Shown: in pieces, positions 1-9,436 of the stretch
Layout of the letters: each line of letters starts with the position of its first letter
How positions within the stretch are numbered: the first letter of the stretch is position 1
Virus record (IMG/VR): IMGVR_UViG_2695420597_000017
Origin: a virus
Lineage: Duplodnaviria > Heunggongvirae > Uroviricota > Caudoviricetes
Strand: one strand, 5' to 3'
Length of the DNA: 10,695 bases
Made by a program: the position numbers and the translations under genes
The notes under the pieces: generated by a model
What the model was told of the DNA's origin: nothing
The model's database searches: none
Seen by the model: only the letters and a program-made list of their open reading frames with translations

Positions 1-1119
1 TCAAATAACCAACTTAACCCATTCCTGACCTCGAGTATCGTTATAGCGATCGGTGGTTGCCTGGACTTTATGTCCTAGTAATGTTTTTGTATCGATACCC
101 TGTGCACGGTACAGCCGTTCTGATAGAGAGCGTTGTTCATGAAATGTTGGCGGAGTTTTTCCTGCTGGTGGAATTATCCCAGCCAGATCCCGTGCTTTGG
201 CAAAGTAGTCGCTCAGGTTGTCTTTACTCATCGGCTTCGGTTGTTTCTGGTGCCGACTATGGATTAGATATGGACTTAATATTCTGTCTCGGCACCCATC
301 AATAACTTCTTTTAACGTTATCCCAATGGCATCACAGCGTAGTGTAAGCGGTAACGCCAGACGCATTCCGGTTTTTCCCTGGGTGATATGCAAGTGTTCG
401 TTCCACACATCTGAAAAACGCATGTGGCAAATGTCATCACGGCGCTGACCAGTAACAATCGCAAGAAGCATTGCGTTACGGATAAAGTGTTTTTCAGGCG
501 TTGCATTGTAAATTTTTTGCCAGTCTTCCATGGTGAGCCTGGCTCTGGTTACTTTAGGGATCGGTTTACGGGTAGCCTCCGGAGGATTCCATCCAGGAGG
601 AACTTCCCCTGCATGCTGTGCTTCTTTATAAATATCAACCCATAATCCACGATTTACTCTCGCTGTGCTGACCATGTCTTTATCCAGCCACTCATCCAGT
701 ATTAATGCAAAGTCTCTTACTTCCAGTTCTTTCAATGGGTGGTTTCCCAGACAGGAAACCAGGTATGCAGCCATTCGAGTTTTTTCTTTGTGAGTTGTAG
801 CTGCAATATCTCCATTTTTCAGTCGCGTGTCCTGTATTTTCAGATATCGACCAACCCATGCCTTTAATCTGATACCCCGACGTTTTGTTGCTGACGGACT
901 TTCATCAATTTTGCGCATGAAATATTCAGCTTCTGCTGCAGCTATTCGCTGATTGGCTGTGGAAGCGATTTTTTCTGCCTTACCTTTGTCTGTTCCGAGT
1001 CCGTGAAATTTTCCAGTCACAGGATTTTTATACTGGTAGTAAACTCTGCCAGTTCTGCGATCAAACTTTTCGTAAAGACCGGCTACGTCAGTGCTGTTTT
1101 TTCGTGGCCTCGGTGACAT
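1..1119 (-). CDS. int: Tyrosine site-specific integrase, lambda Int family (372 aa). ATG at 1119..1117, stop TGA at 3..1
   Basis: Full-length ORF in the six-frame track. C-terminal catalytic region HEQRSLSERLY...LLGHK...TDRYNDTRGQEW aligns by eye with the lambda Int R-H-R-Y region (HELRSLSARLY...LLGHK...YRDDRGREW). Its position beside an excisionase at the prophage end fits. No search run. Confidence 0.9.
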   Translation of the reverse strand: MSPRPRKNSTDVAGLYEKFDRRTGRVYYQYKNPVTGKFHGLGTDKGKAEKIASTANQRIAAAEAEYFMRKIDESPSATKRRGIRLKAWVGRYLKIQDTRLKNGDIAATTHKEKTRMAAYLVSCLGNHPLKELEVRDFALILDEWLDKDMVSTARVNRGLWVDIYKEAQHAGEVPPGWNPPEATRKPIPKVTRARLTMEDWQKIYNATPEKHFIRNAMLLAIVTGQRRDDICHMRFSDVWNEHLHITQGKTGMRLALPLTLRCDAIGITLKEVIDGCRDRILSPYLIHSRHQKQPKPMSKDNLSDYFAKARDLAGIIPPAGKTPPTFHEQRSLSERLYRAQGIDTKTLLGHKVQATTDRYNDTRGQEWVKLVI

Positions 1120-1357
1120 GAGTTAAAATCTCCTTCAGTGCATCATCATCGCCAGTATGAATTTCCGGCGCAATTCCCGTTTCACCAGGCCCAACAAATA
1201 CTGCTCGGCGATCTATCAGCCAACGCCCACGAATTTTTTGTGGTCTTGGAACGATGTATCCTAGTTTTCCGTATTTCACCAGGGTAGTGTTTGTTATTGG
1301 GAGACTGAACCGTTTTGGTTTCCACTCGTCGAGCGTTATCAGGTACTGTTCGCTCAT
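1088..1357 (-). CDS. xis: Excisionase (Xis-like), 89 aa from ATG at 1357..1355; the track ORF extends to a GTG at 1366
   Basis: Small basic ORF immediately upstream of int, overlapping it by 32 nt (typical xis-int overlap). Motif YLITLDEW...RRAVFV resembles the lambda Xis N-terminus (YLTLQEW). GGAG Shine-Dalgarno 9 nt upstream of the ATG. Confidence 0.7.
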   Translation of the reverse strand: MSEQYLITLDEWKPKRFSLPITNTTLVKYGKLGYIVPRPQKIRGRWLIDRRAVFVGPGETGIAPEIHTGDDDALKEILTHVTEATKKQH

Positions 1358-1418
1358 GGCTATCACTCCGGAACGCGCCAGTTGCAGAATATCAACGACA
1401 ACTGGCGACGGTTGAACA

Positions 1419-3890
1419 TTAAAAATCAGCCTGACTCGGGATCAGTTTTTGCCAGATAACTGAAACGTATTTTGCCTGGTAACGGGCGTCATCAAGTGCA
1501 TTATGGCGCTCACCTTCGAATGGAATAGCCGTTCTGGCATCGAAGTCTATGGCTTTCCCCAGCTCAACGATTGTGCGTACATCGCGATCGTTGTAGTAAC
1601 GCCACGGGCAGGGGATCCCCTGCCGTTCGTATGAACGGCGCAAAATCGTGTTGTCGAAGTTGGCTCCATTTCCCCAGACCTGAACAAAAAATTCACCGGA
1701 GTTTTCGTCGATAAATTCCCGCAATTGTAACAGTGCATCATCTAACGGGATTTCATCGGTCATAATGGCAGATTGCGCTTCGCGTGATTGCTTAAGCCAC
1801 CATTTAATGGTGTCCCGATCAATGACTCCGCCAGCAGTTTCCAGATCGATAGTCTTACTAAATTCCGGTCCCATATCTCCGGTTTGCGGATCGAAAAATA
1901 TTGCACCTATTGAGATGATCGGGGCATCAGGATTTTTTCCCATGGTTTCAAGGTCTATCATTAGATGGTCACACGTCCTGCTGGTGGATGTGATTACGTG
2001 ATGACCGTTCACCTTAATTGAGTGATCTGCCGTCTCGCCAGTTTCATTATCGCTATCGTGATGCTGATTGCCGCCAGTGTTCTCCTTGTGTGGATGTTCA
2101 GCGCCTTCCATTTCCTCCGGATCATCTTCCTGAACTTCAACCTGATACTCTTCATCGAATGTTTCCTGGTATGTTGCGTCGCCCATCACCGCGCCACAAT
2201 CAGGGCAGTTGCCGCCGCCGGTCTGACCGCAGGCGGTGCAGACTTTTTCCACTTCCTGTTGCGCCACTGGTTCAGGCTGTTTCGTTTCTGGCTCGTTTTG
2301 TAACGCATTTGGGCTGTTTTGTTCCGCTTTTTGGTAGTTCCGTTCCGATTCATGCTGGTTCTGGTTTACAGAATCGCGGGTCTGGATCCCCTTAACCCAT
2401 TTCGGATCATTCGGGTCGCTAATCCCTGCAACAAATTCTCCGCGAGAGGCAGCAAGCAACTTATCGGCGTCAGGCTGGCTGATATTGGCTGCCTGCATAA
2501 TTTTGTTTACTTCGTCAGCGGTAACTTTTACCGGCTCTGGTTGTGCGGTCGTGTCAGATGCACCAGTATTTTGTTGTGAACCTGAGTATGTACCGTTTTT
2601 GCGGGCGAAATATTCTTCTTTCGTGATTTCAGTAGCCCCTGCAGCCAGTGCCTTATCCAGACCAGAAAGTTTGTTTGCGCGACCGTATTTTTCGCTATCC
2701 TTGTCGGTGAAGAGGAAGTAGAACGGCCCTTCACGCTCTACAGATGGTTCGACTTCCACTTTGCATTCGGTTTTTTCGTTGTCCGGAATTGCCGTTTCCA
2801 CTGCATCAGTTTCTGGTACTGGCGACGAGAGAGTATCAGTTGCGCTCTGATTTCTTCCTTCATCTTCAAACACGCCCTTTGTAGTCAGGTATTCAGTAAT
2901 GTATTTGTTCAGTGCCACAGGGTCTTTGTGAATGTCGATCGGACGTTCACGGACAAGGCCAAAAATAGTCTGGCGGTCGTAGCGAAGGGCATCAGGCTGT
3001 TTGCGCATTGATGCCGAGATACGCTTCCAGTCTTCGCGGTCGTTGTCGATAACTTCATTTTTTGCCCAGCGATGGATGCTGCCGTCAATGTTTCCGGCAT
3101 CCACATCACCAGGCCAGAGAGCGTAGGCCAGTTCGTCATCCAGTGTTTTCCATGTCTGCTTGTATTCGCGATGAGTGGCAGCAATGACCGGGCTGATTTT
3201 TCCTGTTGAATTTTCAGTGTTCTGTTGATTGGCTCTGGCGCGGGCGAGATCAACAACAGACGTGTATTTTCCAGTCTCTTTGCGCTCTGCGTCCTGCCGT
3301 TTTTTCCAGTTACGTAATTCAGCCTGAATTTCGGGCCATTTGGCACCCGGATTACATTTGTGTTTAACCCATCCGATAGCGAACAGTTTGCGTTCCGGAT
3401 ACATAGCGTTAATTTCAGGCGTTTTCATCAGTGCTTCAACGATATGCCCGTCAAAGGTAGCAACGTCTTCCTGCAGTAATTCCTGCGCGTCAATCGCCAT
3501 ATCAACGGTGATGTTTTCACATGTACCGAACTTAACCAGGACCGCGTTCTGTACTTCAAGGGACAGCTTGTCAAAATTGACGTTCATCGGATCGGATTCT
3601 GGTTCGACCGGAATAAAGGAAGCGGATTCCTCATCCCAGCGGTTTTCCTGCATATATTCAGCATCCCAGGAATCGAGGGCAGGGCGGGGTATACCGGGTT
3701 TATCCTCGCAGACAAGAAATTTATAAGCGCAGTCCTGAGCAGCCGGATAATGTTCCAGGAATTGCCAGTGAAATTTTGCGCGGGCGCGACGTTCATCACC
3801 GGCTTCAATGGCAGTGGCTACAGCGACGGCACCTTCTTCCTTTATTGCCTGTTCGTCCGGAATGGCGGCGCAAATAAAGACTTTACTCAT
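1419..3890 (-). CDS. Large multidomain protein (823 aa) with C-terminal DnaQ-like DEDDh 3'-5' exonuclease domain; proteins of this kind are often annotated as exodeoxyribonuclease VIII-like in lambdoid prophages
   Basis: Long uninterrupted ORF with ATG at 3890 and a GAGGT Shine-Dalgarno upstream. The C-terminal ~190 aa carry exonuclease motifs Exo I (MIDLETMG), Exo II (VWGNGANFD) and Exo III (HNALDDARYQ). The central acidic/Q-rich linker contains a CxxC-x9-CxxC zinc-ribbon-like motif (CTACGQTGGGNCPDCG). The N-terminal ~330 aa are of unrecognised function. The gene sits where lambdoid phages carry recombination functions (between xis and the pL-operon genes). Confidence 0.8.
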   Translation of the reverse strand: MSKVFICAAIPDEQAIKEEGAVAVATAIEAGDERRARAKFHWQFLEHYPAAQDCAYKFLVCEDKPGIPRPALDSWDAEYMQENRWDEESASFIPVEPESDPMNVNFDKLSLEVQNAVLVKFGTCENITVDMAIDAQELLQEDVATFDGHIVEALMKTPEINAMYPERKLFAIGWVKHKCNPGAKWPEIQAELRNWKKRQDAERKETGKYTSVVDLARARANQQNTENSTGKISPVIAATHREYKQTWKTLDDELAYALWPGDVDAGNIDGSIHRWAKNEVIDNDREDWKRISASMRKQPDALRYDRQTIFGLVRERPIDIHKDPVALNKYITEYLTTKGVFEDEGRNQSATDTLSSPVPETDAVETAIPDNEKTECKVEVEPSVEREGPFYFLFTDKDSEKYGRANKLSGLDKALAAGATEITKEEYFARKNGTYSGSQQNTGASDTTAQPEPVKVTADEVNKIMQAANISQPDADKLLAASRGEFVAGISDPNDPKWVKGIQTRDSVNQNQHESERNYQKAEQNSPNALQNEPETKQPEPVAQQEVEKVCTACGQTGGGNCPDCGAVMGDATYQETFDEEYQVEVQEDDPEEMEGAEHPHKENTGGNQHHDSDNETGETADHSIKVNGHHVITSTSRTCDHLMIDLETMGKNPDAPIISIGAIFFDPQTGDMGPEFSKTIDLETAGGVIDRDTIKWWLKQSREAQSAIMTDEIPLDDALLQLREFIDENSGEFFVQVWGNGANFDNTILRRSYERQGIPCPWRYYNDRDVRTIVELGKAIDFDARTAIPFEGERHNALDDARYQAKYVSVIWQKLIPSQADF

Positions 3891-3985
3891 TTTGTTTTAA
3901 CCTCATTACAGATTTCAGGGTGAACGAATCCCTGCCATTGCTGGCATTTTTAATCCGTTGGTATGGCGTTAATATGGCTGGCGGG

Positions 3986-4174
3986 TTATCCAGCCGGTAT
4001 TTCGTTATTCAGGTTCAGCGATACTTTTTTTAACGGGAGGCATTCACCGGGGATTTTTTGTTCGTCCCTTACCTGAATGCAGGATGACTTACTGTCATAA
4101 ATTCCGGTAATCACATTTTGTGGCTCACCCGTTATAAGAAAAACGGTCATCACCAGTGCAAATGCTGAAGTCAC
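3986..4174 (-). CDS. ydfD: YdfD-like small protein with N-terminal hydrophobic segment (62 aa, GTG start)
   Basis: ORF directly downstream of dicB with a GTGA start/stop overlap, suggesting translational coupling. GGAG Shine-Dalgarno 7 nt upstream of the GTG. The N-terminus (SAFALVMTVFLITGEP) is hydrophobic and the C-terminus ends EIPAG, which resembles my recollection of Qin prophage YdfD. Not verifiable here. Confidence 0.5.
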   Translation of the reverse strand: MTSAFALVMTVFLITGEPQNVITGIYDSKSSCIQVRDEQKIPGECLPLKKVSLNLNNEIPAG

Positions 4175-4359
4175 TGCTGTTCTCCGATAATACCAAGTTC
4201 AAGAAGGGCAATTCTGGAAAGTATGGAATTATCATTGAGAAGATAAGGTTCATATTTTCTCATCTTAATGGCATCTTCCGTAAACTCCCGGTTACTGAGC
4301 AGAACACCAATATCAAAACAACCTTCAGACGTATTAACGTTTGGTAATAACGTTTCCAT
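4171..4359 (-). CDS. dicB: Cell division inhibitor DicB homologue (62 aa)
   Basis: ATG at 4359..4357 with a GAGGA Shine-Dalgarno 7 nt upstream. Protein METLLPNVNTSEGCFDIGVLLSNREFTEDAI... closely matches my recollection of Qin prophage DicB (MKTLLPNVNTSEGCFEIGV...). It lies immediately downstream of a DicF-like sRNA, as in the Qin dicB operon. The track ORF 4171..4464 is an upstream GTG extension that I consider unlikely. Confidence 0.75.
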   Translation of the reverse strand: METLLPNVNTSEGCFDIGVLLSNREFTEDAIKMRKYEPYLLNDNSILSRIALLELGIIGEQQ

Positions 4360-4528
4360 TATCGCGTCCTCAACAATGAATTTTGTGATGCAGTGCCTGG
4401 TGCCTCCAGGTGACGTTAACCAGTTAACAATTAACGCCGGATACAGAGAGTCCACCCATAACACTGTTTTTGGTTTTAACTGTTCCGCGTGCGCTGAGCC
4501 GCATTCACCGCATCACAAAATTCACTTT

Positions 4529-4571
4529 AAAAACGGCGGCAGAGCAGTCACGGAGTAAAACTGATACCGCC
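4529..4571 (-). terminator. Intrinsic terminator hairpin forming the 3' end of DicF
   Basis: On the minus strand, GGCGG (complement of 4571..4567) pairs with CCGCC (complement of 4539..4535), with an inner CAGU/ACUG helix, followed by a U5 tract (complement of 4533..4529). Confidence 0.5.
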
Positions 4572-4586
4572 AAACGTCACCAGAAA
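4534..4586 (-). ncRNA. dicF: DicF small regulatory RNA (about 53 nt; antisense regulator of ftsZ and other mRNAs in E. coli)
   Basis: The minus strand reads UUUCUGGUGACGUUUGGCGGUAUCAGUUUUACUCCGUGACUGCUCUGCCGCCG followed by UUUUU, which matches my recollection of K-12 DicF almost base for base. It sits between ydfC-like and dicB-like genes as in the Qin prophage. Exact ends are processing sites and cannot be fixed from sequence. Confidence 0.75.
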
Positions 4587-4926
4587 ATTGATAACAGAGG
4601 GCGTTGCAGCGGGGTTGTCACTTAAGCGTATGGTCAACCTGACAACTCGGTGTCCTCAACGGGGAAGGAATAACCCCGCCATACTTACCGCCGCGCCATT
4701 TCGCGGGTTGCCACAACCGGAAGCGCACGGTCGACGAAAATTTAACGACAGGCTATCTATGAACCAGCTACCTCGCCGTGCGCTTTCGCGTTATGGTCTG
4801 ACTTTTCAGGGAAATATCCTTTCAGTAAACTGTCAGTGCCGGATGCTCACCCGTGTCCGGCGCACGCACTCCACCTCACCCGTGGAGAATTCCTTAATTA
4901 CCAACCTTAGCTTCGTTGGTTAGCTA

Positions 4927-5145
4927 TTAACGCGGGTATGTAATCATTCTGGCAATGCTTAATGCCGCTGCTTTTTCCAGATTGGTGATATCCTGCTCCA
5001 GAGCGGACAGATTTTCAGCCTGCTTAGCCCTGGCTTCATTAGCCCATTTCAGATCCTGCGCTGCATTAATTTTCTGGCGCATCCACTCATAAAGTTCATC
5101 ATCGGTATAGTCTGGCGCGATTATGACGGGTTCTCGTTTCTGCAT
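4927..5145 (-). CDS. ydfC: YdfC-like small protein (72 aa)
   Basis: ATG at 5145..5143 with a GAGGA Shine-Dalgarno 7 nt upstream. Size and position (third gene of a ydfA-ydfB-ydfC-dicF-dicB array) match Qin prophage YdfC. Sequence identity is not verified. Confidence 0.6.
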   Translation of the reverse strand: MQKREPVIIAPDYTDDELYEWMRQKINAAQDLKWANEARAKQAENLSALEQDITNLEKAAALSIARMITYPR

Positions 5146-5174
5146 ACTGATTCCTCGCGGTGCTACTTCGCTTA

Positions 5175-5303
5175 TCAGCCGTTAGATTTTGCCGAGCTGG
5201 AAAGCGCCTGTTTAAACTCACTGAAGCTGAGAGCTTCTTCGCCTTCGGCAAGGTCTTCGAAGTATTCTTCGTAAGCCTTTTCCATGATTGTGTCGAAATC
5301 CAT
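5175..5303 (-). CDS. ydfB: YdfB-like small protein (42 aa); not in the supplied ORF track because it is below the length cutoff
   Basis: My own translation of the minus strand from ATG 5303..5301 gives MDFDTIMEKAYEEYFEDLAEGEEALSFSEFKQALSSSAKSNG with stop TGA at 5177..5175. An AGGTGA Shine-Dalgarno lies about 6 nt upstream. The ATG is 1 nt after the ydfA stop (tight coupling). Acidic small protein of YdfB size and position. Confidence 0.6.
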   Translation of the reverse strand: MDFDTIMEKAYEEYFEDLAEGEEALSFSEFKQALSSSAKSNG

Positions 5304-5304
5304 A

Positions 5305-5460
5305 TCACTCACCTGAGTTTCTTTCCAGCCAGCGACGGGCACCATTTTCGGTTTTAAACGTTTTGCTTTTGGTATACGTCATCGCGGTGAACGTACCGTC
5401 CTGGTTGGGGAACACGCCACATACCAGAGATTCGCTGTTGCCAAGATCGATAGTATCCAT
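5305..5460 (-). CDS. ydfA: YdfA-like small protein (51 aa, DUF1391-like); the track ORF 5305..5547 is a possible 80-aa N-terminally extended form
   Basis: Internal ATG at 5460..5458 has a GAGG Shine-Dalgarno at 6-nt spacing and gives MDTIDLGNSESLVCGVFPNQDGTFTAMTYTKSKTFKTENGARRWLERNSGE (51 aa, the K-12 YdfA size). The upstream ATG at 5547 has its GAGG only 3 nt away. Confidence 0.6.
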   Translation of the reverse strand: MDTIDLGNSESLVCGVFPNQDGTFTAMTYTKSKTFKTENGARRWLERNSGE

Positions 5461-5644
5461 GCTGACCTCATTTCCCCTTAACGCTGGGGTAGCGGAACTA
5501 AAAACCTGCTGCGCTGTTATACAAAGTGTTCCCGCCGTCATGTTCATACGCCTCGGGCTGGCTACTTACCCCCTGACCACTGCTTGGTAACTCGAAGTAT
5601 TGCCCGGCGTTCTGTGGGGCGGGGTGGGTTGGTATGTTGTTAAG

Positions 5645-5681
5645 GTAACAAGAGTTACCTTTCGAGTCAATACAATGTTGC
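5645..5681. promoter_or_regulatory. Predicted left operator/promoter region (OL/pL-like): one perfect-armed GTAAC-N4-GTTAC site (5645..5658) and a degenerate site 23 bp away (5668..5681, sharing CAATGTTnC with the OR site at 6408..6421)
   Basis: The same inverted-repeat motif recurs twice between cI and cro. A TTGACT -35-like hexamer on the minus strand (complement of 5669..5664) sits next to the operator. No convincing -10 could be assigned, so the promoter call is tentative. Confidence 0.4.
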
Positions 5682-5702
5682 AAAAGGTACGTTTGAGGGC
5701 AT

Positions 5703-5725
5703 AAAAAACCCGCAATGAATGCGGG
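5703..5725 (-). terminator. Rho-independent terminator downstream of cI
   Basis: On the minus strand, a stem CCCGCA/UGCGGG with a 6-nt loop (plus-strand 5709..5725) is followed by a U6 run (complement of the A6 at 5703..5708). It lies 8 bp past the cI stop codon (5735..5733). Confidence 0.6.
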
Positions 5726-5732
5726 TTCTGAC

Positions 5733-6407
5733 TCAGTCTAAGTATTGATGTATTTGTGAAACTTTACCTTTAATGGTGTAACCACCATTCAGTTCGATGG
5801 GTTTGTAAAGCGGATTCAGTGACAACAGATAGATGTTTGGTCCGTCAATCGCAACTTTTTTTAGTGTTACGTTTGGCGTTCCTTCCAATTGGATTAAGAT
5901 TATTTTTCCCACCAGTTCTCTAATGTTACTTGAGCATGGTGTGATCAGCACGGTAGATCCGTCGGGGATGGTTGGGAGGCCGTTAGAGTTTGTCATCGCA
6001 TCTCCCTCAACATGCAATAAAAAAGAGTTTTCAGCGGTTTTTGTCATGACATCAACCCAATTCTTAATACCAGGAATCTCGGTTACTGGACAACTCATAT
6101 CCCAATAACCAGCCTGTTCCCACGTTAAAACGGGCAACCGGGCGATGTTGTCACTAATGTAAGGGTACTGATTCAGACGCAGATCATCGGCTTTATCGTG
6201 ACCGTCCTTTCCATAAAGAATCCATTCAGGAGATTTGGAAAGCAATTTTGACAGTAGATACAAATTCTCACCGTCAGGTTTTGAAGAGCCATTTTCCCAT
6301 TTTGTTACGGATACACGAGATATGCCGATTGCTTTCGCAACCTGCTGTTGGGTTAATCCAACGTCTTTTCGACGATTCCGAATACGTTCGCTGATAGTGT
6401 TTTTCAT
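5733..6407 (-). CDS. cI: CI-type prophage repressor: N-terminal XRE-family HTH plus C-terminal S24 (LexA-like) peptidase domain, 224 aa from ATG 6407..6405. The catalytic-serine position is Ala
   Basis: HTH region LTQQQVAKAIGISRVSVTKWENG. Ala-Gly candidate cleavage site in EQAGYW. The S24 motif reads LLHVEGDAMT...VTLKKV, where lambda CI has EGNSM and LexA has GMSM; the conserved Lys is present in LKK. The gene is divergent from cro with an operator-bearing intergenic region. The track ORF starts at an upstream TTG (6506) that would overlap the cro Shine-Dalgarno; ATG 6449 or 6407 is more plausible, and I chose 6407 so that the operators fall outside the CDS. Confidence 0.85.
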   Translation of the reverse strand: MKNTISERIRNRRKDVGLTQQQVAKAIGISRVSVTKWENGSSKPDGENLYLLSKLLSKSPEWILYGKDGHDKADDLRLNQYPYISDNIARLPVLTWEQAGYWDMSCPVTEIPGIKNWVDVMTKTAENSFLLHVEGDAMTNSNGLPTIPDGSTVLITPCSSNIRELVGKIILIQLEGTPNVTLKKVAIDGPNIYLLSLNPLYKPIELNGGYTIKGKVSQIHQYLD

Positions 6408-6498
6408 GTAACCAATGTTACTACCAAGTGATGTTGCTATGGTTGACATTGTTATGTAACTATTGTTACCCTTCTGCTCGAAATAACAGGAGAGTTTT
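6408..6498. promoter_or_regulatory. Divergent cI/cro promoter-operator region (OR/pR/pRM-like) with GTAAC-N4-GTTAC operator sites at 6408..6421 and 6456..6469, 48 bp centre to centre, and a possible weak middle site near 6432..6446
   Basis: Two near-identical imperfect palindromes (GTAACCAATGTTAC and GTAACTATTGTTAC). The spacing is twice the ~24-bp operator period typical of lambdoid OR. A TTGACA -35-like hexamer sits at 6443..6448. The cro Shine-Dalgarno AGGAG is at 6489..6493. Confidence 0.5.
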
Positions 6499-6714
6499 AT
6501 GTTCAAAGATGATGTTCTGCGCTATTTCAAAAAAAAGCGACTAGTAGCTGAGGCTCTTGGAATTTCACATGTGGCTGTTGTGCGGTGGAAAGCAGTTATT
6601 CCCAAACTTCGCGCAATGGAACTGGATGAAATTACTAACGGTGAATTGAAATACAACCCAGAACTTTACAAGAAGCAGGATAGCACCTCAAACGAAGGAA
6701 AGAATGATTCATGA
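6499..6714 (+). CDS. cro: Cro-like repressor (71 aa), P22 Cro-like HTH
   Basis: ATG at 6499 preceded by AGGAG at 5-nt spacing. Protein MFKDDVLRYFKKKRLVAEALGISHVAVVRWKAVIP... resembles my recollection of P22 Cro (MYKKDVIDHFGTQRAVAKALGISDAAVSQWKEVIP...). Divergent from cI. Confidence 0.85.
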   Translation: MFKDDVLRYFKKKRLVAEALGISHVAVVRWKAVIPKLRAMELDEITNGELKYNPELYKKQDSTSNEGKNDS

Positions 6715-7136
6715 AAATCAAGCATGAACACATCCGCATGGCGATGAATGTCTGGGCGCATCCGGACGGCGAAAAAGTGCCGGCTGCGAAAATTACCAAA
6801 GCGTATTTCGAGCTGGGAATGACGTTCCCGGAACTGTATGACGACAGCCATCCGGAAGCCCTGGCCCGTAATACCCAGAAAATTTTCCGTTGGCTGGATA
6901 AAGACACCCCTGATGCTGTTGAAAAAATGCAGGCTCTGTTACCGGCGATCGAAAAGGCGATGCCGCCTTTGCTGGTGGCCCGTATGCGCAGCCACAGTTC
7001 TGAATATTACCGTGAGATCGTCGAACGGAGGGATCGGCTGGTGAAGGATGTCGATGATTTTGTTGCGTCAGCGGTTGTTTTGTATGACCAGATGAATCGC
7101 GGCGGCCCGGCAGGGAATGCTGTGGTGATGCACTAA
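6711..7136 (+). CDS. ydaT: YdaT-like protein (141 aa), occupying the cII position; YdaT-family proteins are reported as CII functional analogues in Rac/CP-933P-type prophages
   Basis: ATG overlaps the cro stop (ATGA at 6711..6714). The N-terminus MKIKHEHI... and the ~140-aa size match my recollection of the YdaT family. The position directly after cro in the pR operon fits. Not verified by search. Confidence 0.65.
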   Translation: MKIKHEHIRMAMNVWAHPDGEKVPAAKITKAYFELGMTFPELYDDSHPEALARNTQKIFRWLDKDTPDAVEKMQALLPAIEKAMPPLLVARMRSHSSEYYREIVERRDRLVKDVDDFVASAVVLYDQMNRGGPAGNAVVMH

Positions 7137-8127: not shown

Positions 8128-8802
8128 ATGAAAAACATTGCGGCAGTTGGGGTTCTTGAACGTATTCGCAGACTTGCACCACAGGGGTCGGTTCCACCGT
8201 ACCGGACGGTGGAGGAGTGGCGGGAATGGCAACTTGCTGAAGGACGAAAACGCAGCGAGGAGATTAACCGCCAGAATCGCCAGTTGCGGGTGGAAAAAAT
8301 CCTGAATCGTTCGGGCATCCAGCCTCTGCACAGCAAATGCTCGTTTGCGAATTATCAGGTGCAGAACGACGGGCAAAAATACGCGCTGAGCCAGGCCAAA
8401 TCCATAGCTGACGAACTGATGACCGGGTGCACGAATTTTGTGTTCAGCGGTAAAACCGGCACCGGGAAAAATCACCTTGCAGCGGCGATGGGCAACCGGC
8501 TGATGGTGAAGGGGCGCAGCGTGATTATCGTCACCGTGTCTGACGTCATGAGCGTGTTGCATGACAGCTACGACAACGGCAAATCCGGGGAAAAATTTTT
8601 ACAGGAGCTTTGCGGGGTTGATTTGCTGGTCCTGGATGAAATAGGCGTTCAGCGGGAGACGAAAAACGAGCAGGTGGTATTGCACCAGATAATTGATCGC
8701 CGGACAGCATCACTGTGCAGTGTCGGGATGTTAACAAACCTGAATCATGACGGTTCCACCGTACCGGACGGTGGAGGAGTGGCGGGAATGGCAACTTGCT
8801 GA
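8128..8802 (+). CDS. DnaC-type (IstB-like AAA+) replicative helicase loader, 5' fragment (224 aa): reads through duplication copy 1, then runs out of frame into copy 2 and ends after 17 aberrant residues
   Basis: Walker A GKTGTGKNHL and Walker B LLVLDEIG. ATG 8128 with GGGGGTG Shine-Dalgarno, 6 nt after the O-like stop. The C-terminal 17 aa (DGSTVPDGGGVAGMATC) are a frameshifted read of the duplicated N-terminal DNA. Confidence 0.7.
   Translation: MKNIAAVGVLERIRRLAPQGSVPPYRTVEEWREWQLAEGRKRSEEINRQNRQLRVEKILNRSGIQPLHSKCSFANYQVQNDGQKYALSQAKSIADELMTGCTNFVFSGKTGTGKNHLAAAMGNRLMVKGRSVIIVTVSDVMSVLHDSYDNGKSGEKFLQELCGVDLLVLDEIGVQRETKNEQVVLHQIIDRRTASLCSVGMLTNLNHDGSTVPDGGGVAGMATC
8189..8750 (+). repeat. 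Tandem direct duplication, copy 1 (562 bp)
   Basis: Sequence 8189..8749 is repeated at 8751..9311 (offset 562). I saw about 6 substitutions in the stretches compared (e.g. GGC/GGT, GTG/GCG, GTG/GAG, GAC/GAT, GGG/GGT, GTT/ATT). Confidence 0.85.
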
Positions 8803-9436
8803 AGGACGAAAACGCAGCGAGGAGATTAACCGCCAGAATCGCCAGTTGCGGGTGGAAAAAATCCTGAATCGTTCGGGCATCCAGCCTCTGCACAGCAAAT
8901 GCTCGTTTGCGAATTATCAGGTGCAGAACGACGGGCAAAAATACGCGCTGAGCCAGGCCAAATCCATAGCTGACGAACTGATGACCGGGTGCACGAATTT
9001 TGTGTTCAGCGGTAAAACCGGCACCGGGAAAAATCACCTTGCAGCGGCGATGGGTAACCGGCTGATGGCGAAGGGGCGCAGCGTGATTATCGTCACCGAG
9101 TCTGATGTCATGAGCGTGTTGCATGACAGCTACGACAACGGCAAATCCGGTGAAAAATTTTTACAGGAGCTTTGCGGGGTTGATTTGCTGGTCCTGGATG
9201 AAATAGGCATTCAGCGGGAGACGAAAAACGAGCAGGTGGTATTGCACCAGATAATTGATCGCCGGACAGCATCACTGTGCAGTGTCGGGATGTTAACAAA
9301 CCTGAATCATGCCGCAATGAGCACGCTTCTTGGTGAGAGGATTATGGACCGCATGACCATGAACGGTTGTCGGTGGGTGACGTTTAACTGGGATAGCTGG
9401 CGTTCAAATGTCAGCTTTCCGGGAGTTGTGAAGTAA
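8747..9436 (+). CDS. DnaC-type helicase loader, 3' fragment (229 aa): starts at an ATG at the duplication junction and lacks the first ~20 codons of the gene; carries the authentic C-terminus
   Basis: 95% of its length is near-identical to ORF 8128..8802 (3 amino-acid differences across the repeat). It then continues with NHAAMSTLLGERIMDRMTMNGCRWV..., giving the DnaC/YdaV-size protein once a single copy is assumed. No Shine-Dalgarno precedes ATG 8747. Confidence 0.6.
   Translation: MTVPPYRTVEEWREWQLAEGRKRSEEINRQNRQLRVEKILNRSGIQPLHSKCSFANYQVQNDGQKYALSQAKSIADELMTGCTNFVFSGKTGTGKNHLAAAMGNRLMAKGRSVIIVTESDVMSVLHDSYDNGKSGEKFLQELCGVDLLVLDEIGIQRETKNEQVVLHQIIDRRTASLCSVGMLTNLNHAAMSTLLGERIMDRMTMNGCRWVTFNWDSWRSNVSFPGVVK
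8751..9312 (+). repeat. Tandem direct duplication, copy 2 (562 bp)
   Basis: See copy 1. The unit length is not a multiple of 3, so the duplication shifts the reading frame by +1. Confidence 0.85.

Follow-up and report, generated by a model that had tools for sequence, protein, structure and literature searches.

A dicBF-type cell-division-inhibition operon that lies downstream of a CI-type repressor gene, on the same strand, raises the question of whether this position represents new regulatory wiring or the ordinary setting of the operon. The question is posed here by a stretch of 10,695 nucleotides from a virus of the Caudoviricetes (IMG/VR record IMGVR_UViG_2695420597_000017), called the window in the following. 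Its minus-strand region 3986-5547 is a standard dicBF operon with the order ydfA-ydfB-ydfC-DicF-dicB-ydfD-like. We consider it highly probable that the operon is the promoter-proximal part of a PL-type early-left unit, in a lambdoid prophage of the type inserted adjacent to ompW. The operon and the remainder of the early-left arm, which consists of the exonuclease gene, xis and int on the same strand, comprise these features:

5461-5636, minus strand: untranslated leader of about 175 nt, with an in-frame ATG at 5547
5305-5460, minus strand: ydfA, 51 aa, DUF1391
5175-5303, minus strand: ydfB, 42 aa
4927-5145, minus strand: ydfC, 72 aa
4587-4926, minus strand: spacer upstream of DicF, 340 nt
4534-4586, minus strand: DicF sRNA, Rfam RF00039, including the 3' stem-loop and U-run (intrinsic terminator)
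4360-4533, minus strand: DicF-dicB intergenic region, the 5' UTR of dicB, 98.3% identical to K-12
4171-4359, minus strand: dicB, 62 aa, Pfam DicB PF05358
3986-4174, minus strand: ydfD-like DUF1482 gene, 62 aa, GTG start, Pfam PF07358
1419-3890, minus strand: exonuclease gene, 823 aa, with a Pfam Rv2179c-like 3'-5' exoribonuclease domain (226.6 bits)
about 1088-1366, minus strand: xis, after the exonuclease gene
1-1119, minus strand: int, after xis

The sequence-only reading had assigned the three small minus-strand ORFs of 51, 42 and 72 aa to ydfA, ydfB and ydfC. The comparison with K-12 bears this out, with 49/51, 41/42 and 72/72 identical residues, respectively, and YdfA scores 96.2 bits against Pfam DUF1391 (cutoff 27.3). 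Translation of ydfA would start at an ATG preceded by a GAGG Shine-Dalgarno sequence with a 6-nt spacer, and the ATG of ydfB follows 1 nt past the ydfA stop. Position 5547, where the operon had been said to end, is not the start of the 51-aa ydfA; a longer ORF of 80 aa in the same frame has its ATG there.

For the sRNA, comparison with Rfam, which had been proposed as a check of this region, gives RF00039 with 72.5 bits (gathering score 48, E=8e-15), and the alignment covers the whole model (positions 1-52 of 52). The near-identity to K-12 DicF stated earlier is correct: 52 of 53 nucleotides agree, nucleotides 1-52 are unchanged, and the sole difference is at the base that directly precedes the U-run. 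With its UUUUU tail, the hairpin GGCGGUAUCAG...CUGCCGCC takes the fold of the Rfam consensus. DicF pairs with ftsZ through its 3' part and with xylR through its 5' part (PMC5069750). Both target-pairing regions are unchanged in the window, as compared by sequence, the host ftsZ mRNA being outside the window. The best match to any other Rfam family is sub-threshold, STnc100 at 4382-4522 with 33 bits against a gathering score of 47, and two further matches weaker than this one were judged to be chance.

The spacer upstream of DicF, described beforehand as approximately 340 nt long, has exactly this length, the same as in K-12, and is indel-free relative to it at 97.6% identity. Its fold has a z-score of -2.35 and contains a predicted long imperfect duplex of 4771-4796 with 4711-4736. 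In K-12, DicF occurs as 190-nt and 53-nt species that depend on RNase III and RNase E (PMC10448788). Length arithmetic from K-12 places the 5' end of the 190-nt species at about 4723, inside the spacer duplex, and by homology an RNase III site would be expected at this position.

DicB matches Pfam PF05358 over residues 1-62 of 62 with 129.5 bits (cutoff 27), in line with the earlier assignment of 4171-4359 as a DicB homologue; an in-frame extension of the ORF upstream reaches a GTG at 4464 and gives a 97-aa ORF. The downstream gene, likewise named correctly as YdfD-like, scores 56.4 bits against DUF1482 (cutoff 25), and in the sequence its GTG start overlaps the dicB stop as GTGA. Each of the five small ORFs is intact and has its start and a Shine-Dalgarno sequence.

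The position of the operon had been set against Qin, where the operon was believed to run from the dicC (cro-side) promoter. If this were correct, the position behind cI would be a rearrangement and hence new regulatory wiring. The annotated K-12 order is dicC(-) / dicA(+) ydfA ydfB ydfC dicF dicB ydfD ydfE intQ, so that dicA lies upstream on the operon strand and dicC is divergent. DicA represses the promoter dicBp, which is similar to lambda PL; deletion of dicA induces dicBp 22-fold and deletion of dicC has no effect (PMC10448788). The PL-like nature of dicBp and its repression by DicA are also described in PMC6832061. The layout of the window is therefore canonical, and the contrast with Qin disappears, as the K-12 layout equals that of the window. 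The same layout, a cro-like gene (-) and a repressor gene (+) followed by ydfA through dicB, a DUF1482 gene and an exonuclease gene, is found in all eight loci inspected (K-12, C11, Tritos, Nord1, BEC1-S17, O157:H7 493/89, TUM18781 and UTI89). A rearrangement, in favour of which we found no evidence, is thus refuted and retains virtually no probability. The operon has a match in 4759 of 5426 complete E. coli genomes (about 87%). In strain C11 and in phage Tritos, the gene order through exonuclease, xis and int is as in the window.

Control of a canonical dicBF operon would be exerted at the promoter behind the repressor gene. The immunity region of the window contains the following features:

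6499-6714, plus strand: Cro-type gene, divergent from the repressor gene; Pfam P22_Cro, 59.4 bits
6443-6448 and 6464-6472, plus strand: PR-like promoter, with -35 TTGACA and TGt-TACCCT, respectively
6408-6469, no strand: cI/cro intergenic control region with two perfect GTAAC-N4-GTTAC operators at 6408-6421 and 6456-6469
5733-6407, minus strand: CI-type repressor gene, HTH_3 and Peptidase_S24, 224 aa from the ATG at 6407
5701-5729, minus strand: intrinsic terminator just after the repressor stop, a 10-bp GC-rich hairpin followed by a U-run
5642-5670, minus strand: putative PL-type promoter, the equivalent of dicBp

The repressor gene is indeed upstream of the operon and on its strand, as had been stated. 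RefSeq-style calls start the repressor at 6449 (238 aa), while remote homologues begin at the position of the 6407 ATG; Pfam HTH_3 and Peptidase_S24 are matched with 62.5 and 61 bits. The terminator (-15.8 kcal/mol, z = -4.1, with 0 of 200 shuffles as stable) probably divides the repressor transcript from the operon. We defined the promoters by hand from -35, TGn and -10 elements together with operator geometry. The candidate PL-type promoter has a -35 TTGACT at 5670-5665, a 17-nt spacer and an extended -10 TGt-TACCTT at 5650-5642, of which the hexamer TACCTT is weak. The predicted operator GGTAACTCTTGTTACC at 5659-5644 spans its spacer and -10. Perfect GTAAC-N4-GTTAC occurs at three sites in the window against 0.17 expected in the pattern search; one operator overlaps each of the PL-like and PR-like promoters, and the -35/operator/-10 geometry is identical at both. 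A generic sigma-70 consensus scan of 3800-6800 reported no promoter, and it is uninformative because even PR was missed. Between about 5600 and 5730, a search with two mismatches allowed revealed no further operators, so that a single PL operator is evident; in Qin, three operators are described at the PL-like promoter (PMC10448788). Phage Tritos, whose immunity region is different, is homologous to the window from just downstream of the predicted -10 onward, as expected if transcription starts there. The terminator after cI, the palindrome over the promoter and its twofold recurrence between cI and cro support that the PL-type promoter would be gated by the adjacent CI-type repressor. The repressor control proposed earlier gains its support from these sequence features.

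Gating at this promoter would be partial or irrelevant if DicF or DicB, or both, were produced mainly from an internal promoter, located either ahead of dicB or within the ydfC-dicF spacer. A promoter ahead of dicB was proposed in one earlier study, as noted in PMC10448788, and K-12 DicF accumulates in stationary phase despite DicA (PMC10448788). Against this, the same work detected transcripts spanning ydfA to dicF and reported no evidence of another promoter (PMC10448788), and the scan of 3800-6800, though insensitive, contained no promoter-like site. We regard a mainly internal origin as improbable and retain the PL-type promoter as the probable source of the operon transcript.

The first part of this transcript would be the leader. 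It is 88-92% similar in five of eight compared loci of differing immunity types; K-12, BEC1 and O157 have just its last 28-57 nt. The ORF upstream of ydfA that begins at ATG 5547 is open in six loci and could encode the long form of YdfA. As a candidate for a structured put-like or nut-like antitermination RNA the leader was rejected: its z-score against shuffles is +0.88, and it matches no Rfam family.

For the operon as a whole, the sequence establishes what each part is, the layout, the operator repeats and the terminators. The following sequence of events is suggested by analogy with K-12, from transcription start and repression to RNA processing and protein activities. In a lysogen, the CI-type repressor would bind GTAAC-N4-GTTAC over the PL spacer and -10 (5670-5642) and keep the operon off, with its own transcript ending at the terminator 5729-5701. 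Upon loss of repression, a single polycistronic RNA would start near 5636 and run through ydfA, ydfB and ydfC; in K-12, DicF is processed from a transcript beginning at dicBp (PMC10448788). RNase III would cut the long duplex in the 340-nt spacer and RNase E the 5' end of DicF, and termination at the DicF hairpin would free the 53-nt DicF. Its 3' part would then repress ftsZ translation and its 5' part xylR and other mRNAs. Readthrough of the DicF terminator would yield DicB and the YdfD-like protein, presumably translationally coupled by the GTGA overlap. Following the K-12 model, DicB would send MinC to the septum, thereby blocking division, and would inhibit ManYZ-dependent entry of phage DNA, and the lysis effect of YdfD would be blocked while division is blocked.

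K-12 Qin agrees with the window in gene order, in the strand of the operon relative to the repressor and cro-like genes and in the length of the 340-nt spacer. The individual segments from upstream of ydfA to about codon 18 of dicB are 95-99% identical at the DNA level, and K-12 homology picks up again at the 823-aa exonuclease gene, which is intact in the window and corresponds to the ydfE pseudogene of K-12. In contrast, the immunity regions are unrelated: the window has a repressor of 224/238 aa with an S24 domain, Qin the 135-aa DicA. The leader of the window is mostly missing in K-12, and exonuclease, xis and int are intact in the window, whereas those of K-12 are pseudogenes or interrupted by IS2. 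The window represents an apparently intact ancestral setting, in which the operon is promoter-proximal and the early-left arm runs into exonuclease, xis and int, and this explains the layout of the Qin remnant.

In phage lambda, the PL early-left operon lies downstream of cI on the same strand, with operators shared with PR/PRM, and host-manipulation genes including a cell-division inhibitor precede the recombination, xis and int functions. The window operon shares the position behind cI, the strand, the common operators and a division inhibitor ahead of xis and int. The lambda inhibitor, the product of kil, is directed at FtsZ (PMC6206680). Unlike lambda, the window has no N gene or recognisable nut site and begins with ydfABC, contains an sRNA with its own terminator inside the operon, and would block division through DicF and DicB-MinC rather than through Kil.

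Published work already covers the dicBF operon with its PL-like promoter, its repression by the repressor encoded next to it and its wide spread in E. coli prophages. The exact proteins of the window are likewise in RefSeq, with at least 1000 public contigs carrying each of them, and nothing here is new in kind. The serine-less repressor and the dicB/ydfD allele described below are modest leads on when and how toxic prophage genes switch on.

DicB of the window is a mosaic. Only 38 of 62 residues are identical to K-12 DicB; the N-terminal 20 residues are K-12-like, the C-terminal two thirds (residues 20-62) are a divergent allele, and the breakpoint is near 4305. The N-terminal 14 residues, METLLPNVNTSEGC versus MKTLLPNVNTSEGC, are identical at 13 positions, with the one change K2E and Leu5 retained. 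These approximately 14 residues are essential for DicB activity, and position 2 tolerates substitution (PMC4967827). The YdfD-like protein shares 30 of 63 positions with K-12 YdfD if its GTG start is counted as Met (29/63 if Val); its N-terminus is hydrophobic (hydropathy 2.0, residues 1-15), and Cys32 and Cys45 align with K-12 YdfD, so that both Cys are conserved. We observe that the C-terminal part of dicB and ydfD form a linked divergent allele. Since both proteins belong to it, DicB homologue and YdfD-like are the right terms.

The statements made earlier on DicB and ManXYZ and on lysis by YdfD agree with the literature (PMC6832061, PMC8835842). In K-12, YdfD is a lysis protein that acts through inhibition of IspG (PMC8835842). 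The experimentally tested alleles differ from the window in the C-terminal two thirds of DicB and in most of YdfD. The activities of the window proteins are extrapolated: both the MinC-dependent division block and ManYZ inhibition by DicB and lysis by the YdfD-like protein through IspG inhibition would be carried over from K-12. The linked allele could have a partner specificity other than that of the K-12 pair. Besides Qin, dicBF copies are known from prophages of O157:H7 and UTI89, from phage Tritos and from PPompW-type prophages. Most characterised dicBF copies (K-12, UTI89 and O157) carry the K-12-type dicB/ydfD allele, unlike the window; DicB and the YdfD-like protein of strain C11 are identical to those of the window, and the BEC1-S17 versions are close.

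The operon could also be an inert remnant, kept by linkage in a decaying prophage and inactive in its host. A 562-bp tandem duplication at 8189-9312 splits a DnaC-like replication gene and the repressor has lost its catalytic Ser, both compatible with a prophage that no longer finishes the lytic cycle. These signs are opposed by the intact five small ORFs with their starts and Shine-Dalgarno sequences, by a DicF that differs from the active K-12 RNA at one of 53 positions, and by the recurrence of exactly the same proteins on so many contigs. The related prophage of C11 has head, tail, lysis and Q genes and looks complete, and the far more decayed Qin still has an active operon (PMC10448788). 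We consider an inert remnant very improbable and favour a functional, repressor-gated operon.

The repressor itself departs from lambda CI at one residue. In the HMMER alignment to the lambda repressor (3bdn), Ala137 of the motif VEGDAMT (codon GCG, 5997-5999) is opposite Ser149, so that vegdAmt pairs with lambda VEGNSMT and the G-(D/E/N)-S-M signature of the Ser nucleophile is absent. The Ala-Gly cleavage site (EQAG versus lambda VQAG) and the general-base Lys (LKKV versus FKKL) are kept. Ala occupies this position in each of the 14 members listed for the 90% cluster, in two further close representatives (P0001 and P0004) and in relatives of 89% and 70% identity; Ser is present in relatives of 88% and 66% and in all remoter relatives showing the motif. 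The 90% cluster spans E. coli and E. albertii, and the 70% relative is from Salmonella. The exact repressor is found on at least 1000 contigs, and the ompW-adjoining C11 prophage has the same Ala-for-Ser repressor, not fully identical to that of the window. Among 50,697 deposited phage genomes, none has a repressor that exceeds 60% identity to that of the window.

With its catalytic Ser replaced by Ala, the repressor may be blind to SOS induction. That the dicBF gate in a widespread immunity type is a CI repressor missing only the catalytic Ser (GDAM versus GDSM) is a tentative proposal that may well prove wrong. If the repressor is truly non-self-cleaving, the SOS response would no longer control these prophages or their module for division inhibition and lysis, and the switch would be made by an antirepressor, by stochastic switching or by in-trans cleavage through another S24 protein. 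This would parallel the independent solution of Qin, in which DicA is without the whole domain. Like the Gifsy phages (PMC3121763) and Qin DicA/Rem (PMC10448788), the predicted non-cleaving repressor would need another route of derepression. Unlike the Gifsy and DicA/Rem repressors, it retains the S24 domain in full, together with the Ala-Gly site and the Lys, and the Ser alone is replaced. On serine-less S24 phage repressors, our literature search returned nothing specific.

We identified no antirepressor. As candidates for a LexA-controlled antirepressor, the ash and Rha-family genes at the far end of the complete C11 relative were rejected, with no LexA box before them. In the 47-kb C11 locus, CTGT-N8-ACAG occurs at one site only, within the tail tape measure gene (locus positions 16446-19019), and sites with one mismatch are as frequent in the window as expected by chance.

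The duplication in the DnaC-like gene was also considered as a common variant. This was rejected: among the best matches, the junction hits complete genomes only as two pieces in a single-copy gene.

The minus strand from 5460 to 3986 carries exactly the gene content that the sequence-only reading had listed for a dicBF operon, as judged from protein identities to E. coli K-12, Rfam and Pfam. The surrounding prophage is lambdoid, and its early region makes up the window.

Features of the operon and its prophage setting (identities are to K-12)
1-1119, minus strand: int
between int and the exonuclease gene in the listed order, minus strand: xis
1419-3890, minus strand: exonuclease gene, 823 aa
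3986-4174, minus strand: ydfD-like gene; DUF1482 (YdfD family), 56.4 bits; 30/63 identical
4171-4359, minus strand: dicB; Pfam DicB, 129.5 bits, full length; 38/62 identical
4534-4586, minus strand: DicF; Rfam RF00039, full model, 72.5 bits (gathering score 48)
between DicF and ydfC, minus strand: spacer, 340 nt as in K-12; 97.6% identical
4927-5145, minus strand: ydfC, 72 aa; 72/72 identical
5175-5303, minus strand: ydfB, 42 aa; 41/42 identical
5305-5460, minus strand: ydfA, 51 aa; 49/51 identical
5733-6407/6449, minus strand: CI-type repressor gene
6499-6714, plus strand: P22-Cro-type gene
after the Cro-type gene in the listed order, plus strand: YdaT-like gene, O-like replication gene, DnaC-like gene

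DicF is borne out by its Rfam score and is identical to the K-12 RNA in 52/53 positions, the sole change being the base directly before the U-run. The small proteins are confirmed as YdfA, YdfB, YdfC, DicB and YdfD-like by the K-12 comparison and by the matches to Pfam DicB and DUF1482; the ydfD-like gene starts with GTG and overlaps the dicB stop in GTGA. The extent proposed for the operon, 3986-5547, holds at its 3986 end, while at 5547 a longer in-frame ORF begins with ATG, upstream of the start of the 51-aa ydfA.

The placement of the operon behind cI had been taken as a departure from the Qin prophage of K-12, where the dicC side was thought to drive it. This contrast is wrong, as the K-12 annotation and the literature show (PMC10448788; PMC6832061). 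The annotated K-12 order is dicC on the minus strand, then dicA, ydfA, ydfB, ydfC, dicF, dicB, ydfD, ydfE and intQ on the plus strand, so that gene order and the strand relation of operon to repressor are identical in Qin and in the window. The promoter dicBp is lambda PL-like and repressed by DicA, the dicAC locus directly upstream being an immunity region; deletion of dicA raises dicBp 22-fold, and deletion of dicC is without effect (PMC10448788, with which PMC6832061 agrees on dicBp regulation). We inspected eight loci with at least five different repressors (K-12, C11, phage Tritos, Nord1, BEC1-S17, O157:H7 493/89, TUM18781 and UTI89). All eight, K-12 among them, show a cro-like gene on one strand and the repressor on the other, followed on the repressor strand by ydfA-type genes, dicB, DUF1482 and the exonuclease gene, and the window layout is therefore canonical. 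The close relative C11 is 97% identical across the operon query in the same arrangement, within an apparently complete prophage of ~51 kb that adjoins ompW. The dicBF operon is already known and very common. Balasubramanian et al. described the locus in multiple prophages, with multiple copies in O157:H7. Matches to the operon region were found in 4759 of 5426 complete E. coli genomes, at a median of two places per genome, and at least 80% of the exact variant occurs in 679 genomes. Public records already contain DicB, the YdfD-like protein, YdfA and the repressor in exactly this form and under these annotations, with at least 1000 contigs for each.

The sequence supports the claim that a PL-type promoter drives the operon under repressor control. 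A strong intrinsic terminator directly follows the repressor gene (5729-5701, -15.8 kcal/mol, z = -4.1), and 30 bases past it lies a predicted PL-like promoter, with TTGACT (5670-5665), 17 nt and TGt-TACCTT (5650-5642). The perfect palindrome GGTAACTCTTGTTACC at 5659-5644 spans the promoter spacer and the -10 element. Its core, GTAAC-N4-GTTAC, is found at exactly three sites in the whole window, where 0.17 would be expected; the remaining two lie between cI and cro, where one overlaps a PR-like promoter (TTGACA-N17-TACCCT) in a geometry equal to that at the PL-like one. Homology to phage Tritos, which has an unrelated immunity region, starts just downstream of the predicted -10, which fits a transcription start near 5636.

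The leader that would follow (5636-5461, minus strand, ~175 nt) is common to 5/8 loci of different immunity at 88-92% identity. In contrast to the window, K-12 lacks most of it; as in BEC1 and O157, only the last 28-57 nt remain. No unusual predicted fold was found in the leader. The in-frame ATG at 5547 would give a YdfA form of 78 to 80 aa. Six loci keep this frame open, the window by way of two compensating indels.

The further steps are mapped by homology from work on K-12. There, RNase III releases a 190-nt species from the polycistronic RNA and RNase E the 53-nt DicF, whose 3' end is set by the DicF terminator; transcripts of 1,146 nt and 1,608 nt are known (PMC10448788). By analogy, an RNA from the PL-like promoter would be cut by both enzymes to DicF, and read-through of the DicF terminator would allow dicB and ydfD expression. 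The window spacer folds moderately better than its shuffles (z = -2.35), with a predicted imperfect duplex of 23 bp (4771-4796 with 4711-4736); a count of 190 nt back from the 3' end of DicF leads to ~4723, inside this duplex. DicF pairs with ftsZ through its 3' part and with xylR through its 5' part (PMC5069750), and both regions are unchanged. DicB activity needs the N-terminal 14 residues, of which position 2 tolerates substitution (PMC4967827); 13/14 are identical to K-12, the lone change being K2E. K-12 YdfD lyses dividing cells through IspG, and DicB counteracts this (PMC8835842).

The dicB and ydfD alleles differ from those of K-12. Identity is 95-99% from 5499 to ~4305 (dicB codon ~18); beyond that point it drops, and it rises again near 3945. 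The divergent cassette between these points (~3945-4305, minus strand) takes in the C-terminal two thirds of dicB, all of the ydfD-like gene and the intergenic stretch behind it. Both alleles are strictly linked across nine copies, the window, C11 and BEC1 carrying one type and six the K-12 type. To our knowledge, experiments to date all concern the K-12-type allele.

The dicB frame extends without a stop up to a GTG at 4464 (4171-4464, minus strand; 97 aa), a form annotated in some public entries. The DicF-dicB intergenic region shows a sub-threshold match to STnc100 (RF02076; 4382-4522, minus strand; 33 bits, gathering score 47; E=6e-5; positions 21-154 of the 206 in the model), and STnc100 may be a dicB-type 5' UTR of Salmonella prophages. 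Some dicBF copies carry additional annotated hypothetical ORFs, on either strand, between ydfC (or ydfA) and dicF (L006:2557-2931; L007:2742-3149 and 3127-3360; L008:2165-2530 and 2499-2699, each handle denoting one dicBF locus). Neither the window nor K-12 has these ORFs, and cassette content in the spacer region therefore varies between copies.

The repressor has HTH and S24 domains, and its Ala-Gly site and Lys align with lambda CI. In contrast to lambda CI, the position of the nucleophile Ser is Ala137 (GCG, 5997-5999; VEGDAMT against VEGNSMT). Ala is present in 14/14 listed members of its 90% cluster, in the close representatives P0001 and P0004, in an 89% relative and in a 70% Salmonella relative; Ser is present in an 88% relative, a 66% relative and every remoter relative showing the motif. 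LexA S119A and lambda CI S149A do not self-cleave, and no direct response to RecA is therefore expected. As a lead, the substitution predicts a repressor that would not undergo RecA-stimulated self-cleavage. With the protein of 5733-6407 as query, a search of 50,697 deposited phage records gave no repressor above 60% identity (best 43%); this absence, despite at least 1000 bacterial contigs with the exact protein, is compatible with poor inducibility of prophages of this immunity type but could also reflect sampling bias. No LexA-controlled antirepressor was found in the C11 relative. Upstream of another dicBF copy, the 214-aa Nord1 repressor (L005:1079-1723) reads, by eye, MPDDTMHNP opposite S24 G-D-S-M, with Thr at the nucleophile position and without an obvious Ala-Gly site; on this reading it is another dicBF-linked repressor whose S24 centre departs from the canonical form.

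On the plus strand, the DnaC-like ATP-binding gene contains a 562-bp tandem duplication (8189-8750 and 8751-9312) with six internal mismatches. As 562 is not divisible by 3, two ORFs now stand in place of the gene, each nearly full-length and overlapping the other (8128-8802 and 8747-9436). When the junction is placed on the complete E. coli genomes that match best, it falls into two pieces, both inside a single-copy gene; the duplication is therefore source-specific or an assembly artefact.
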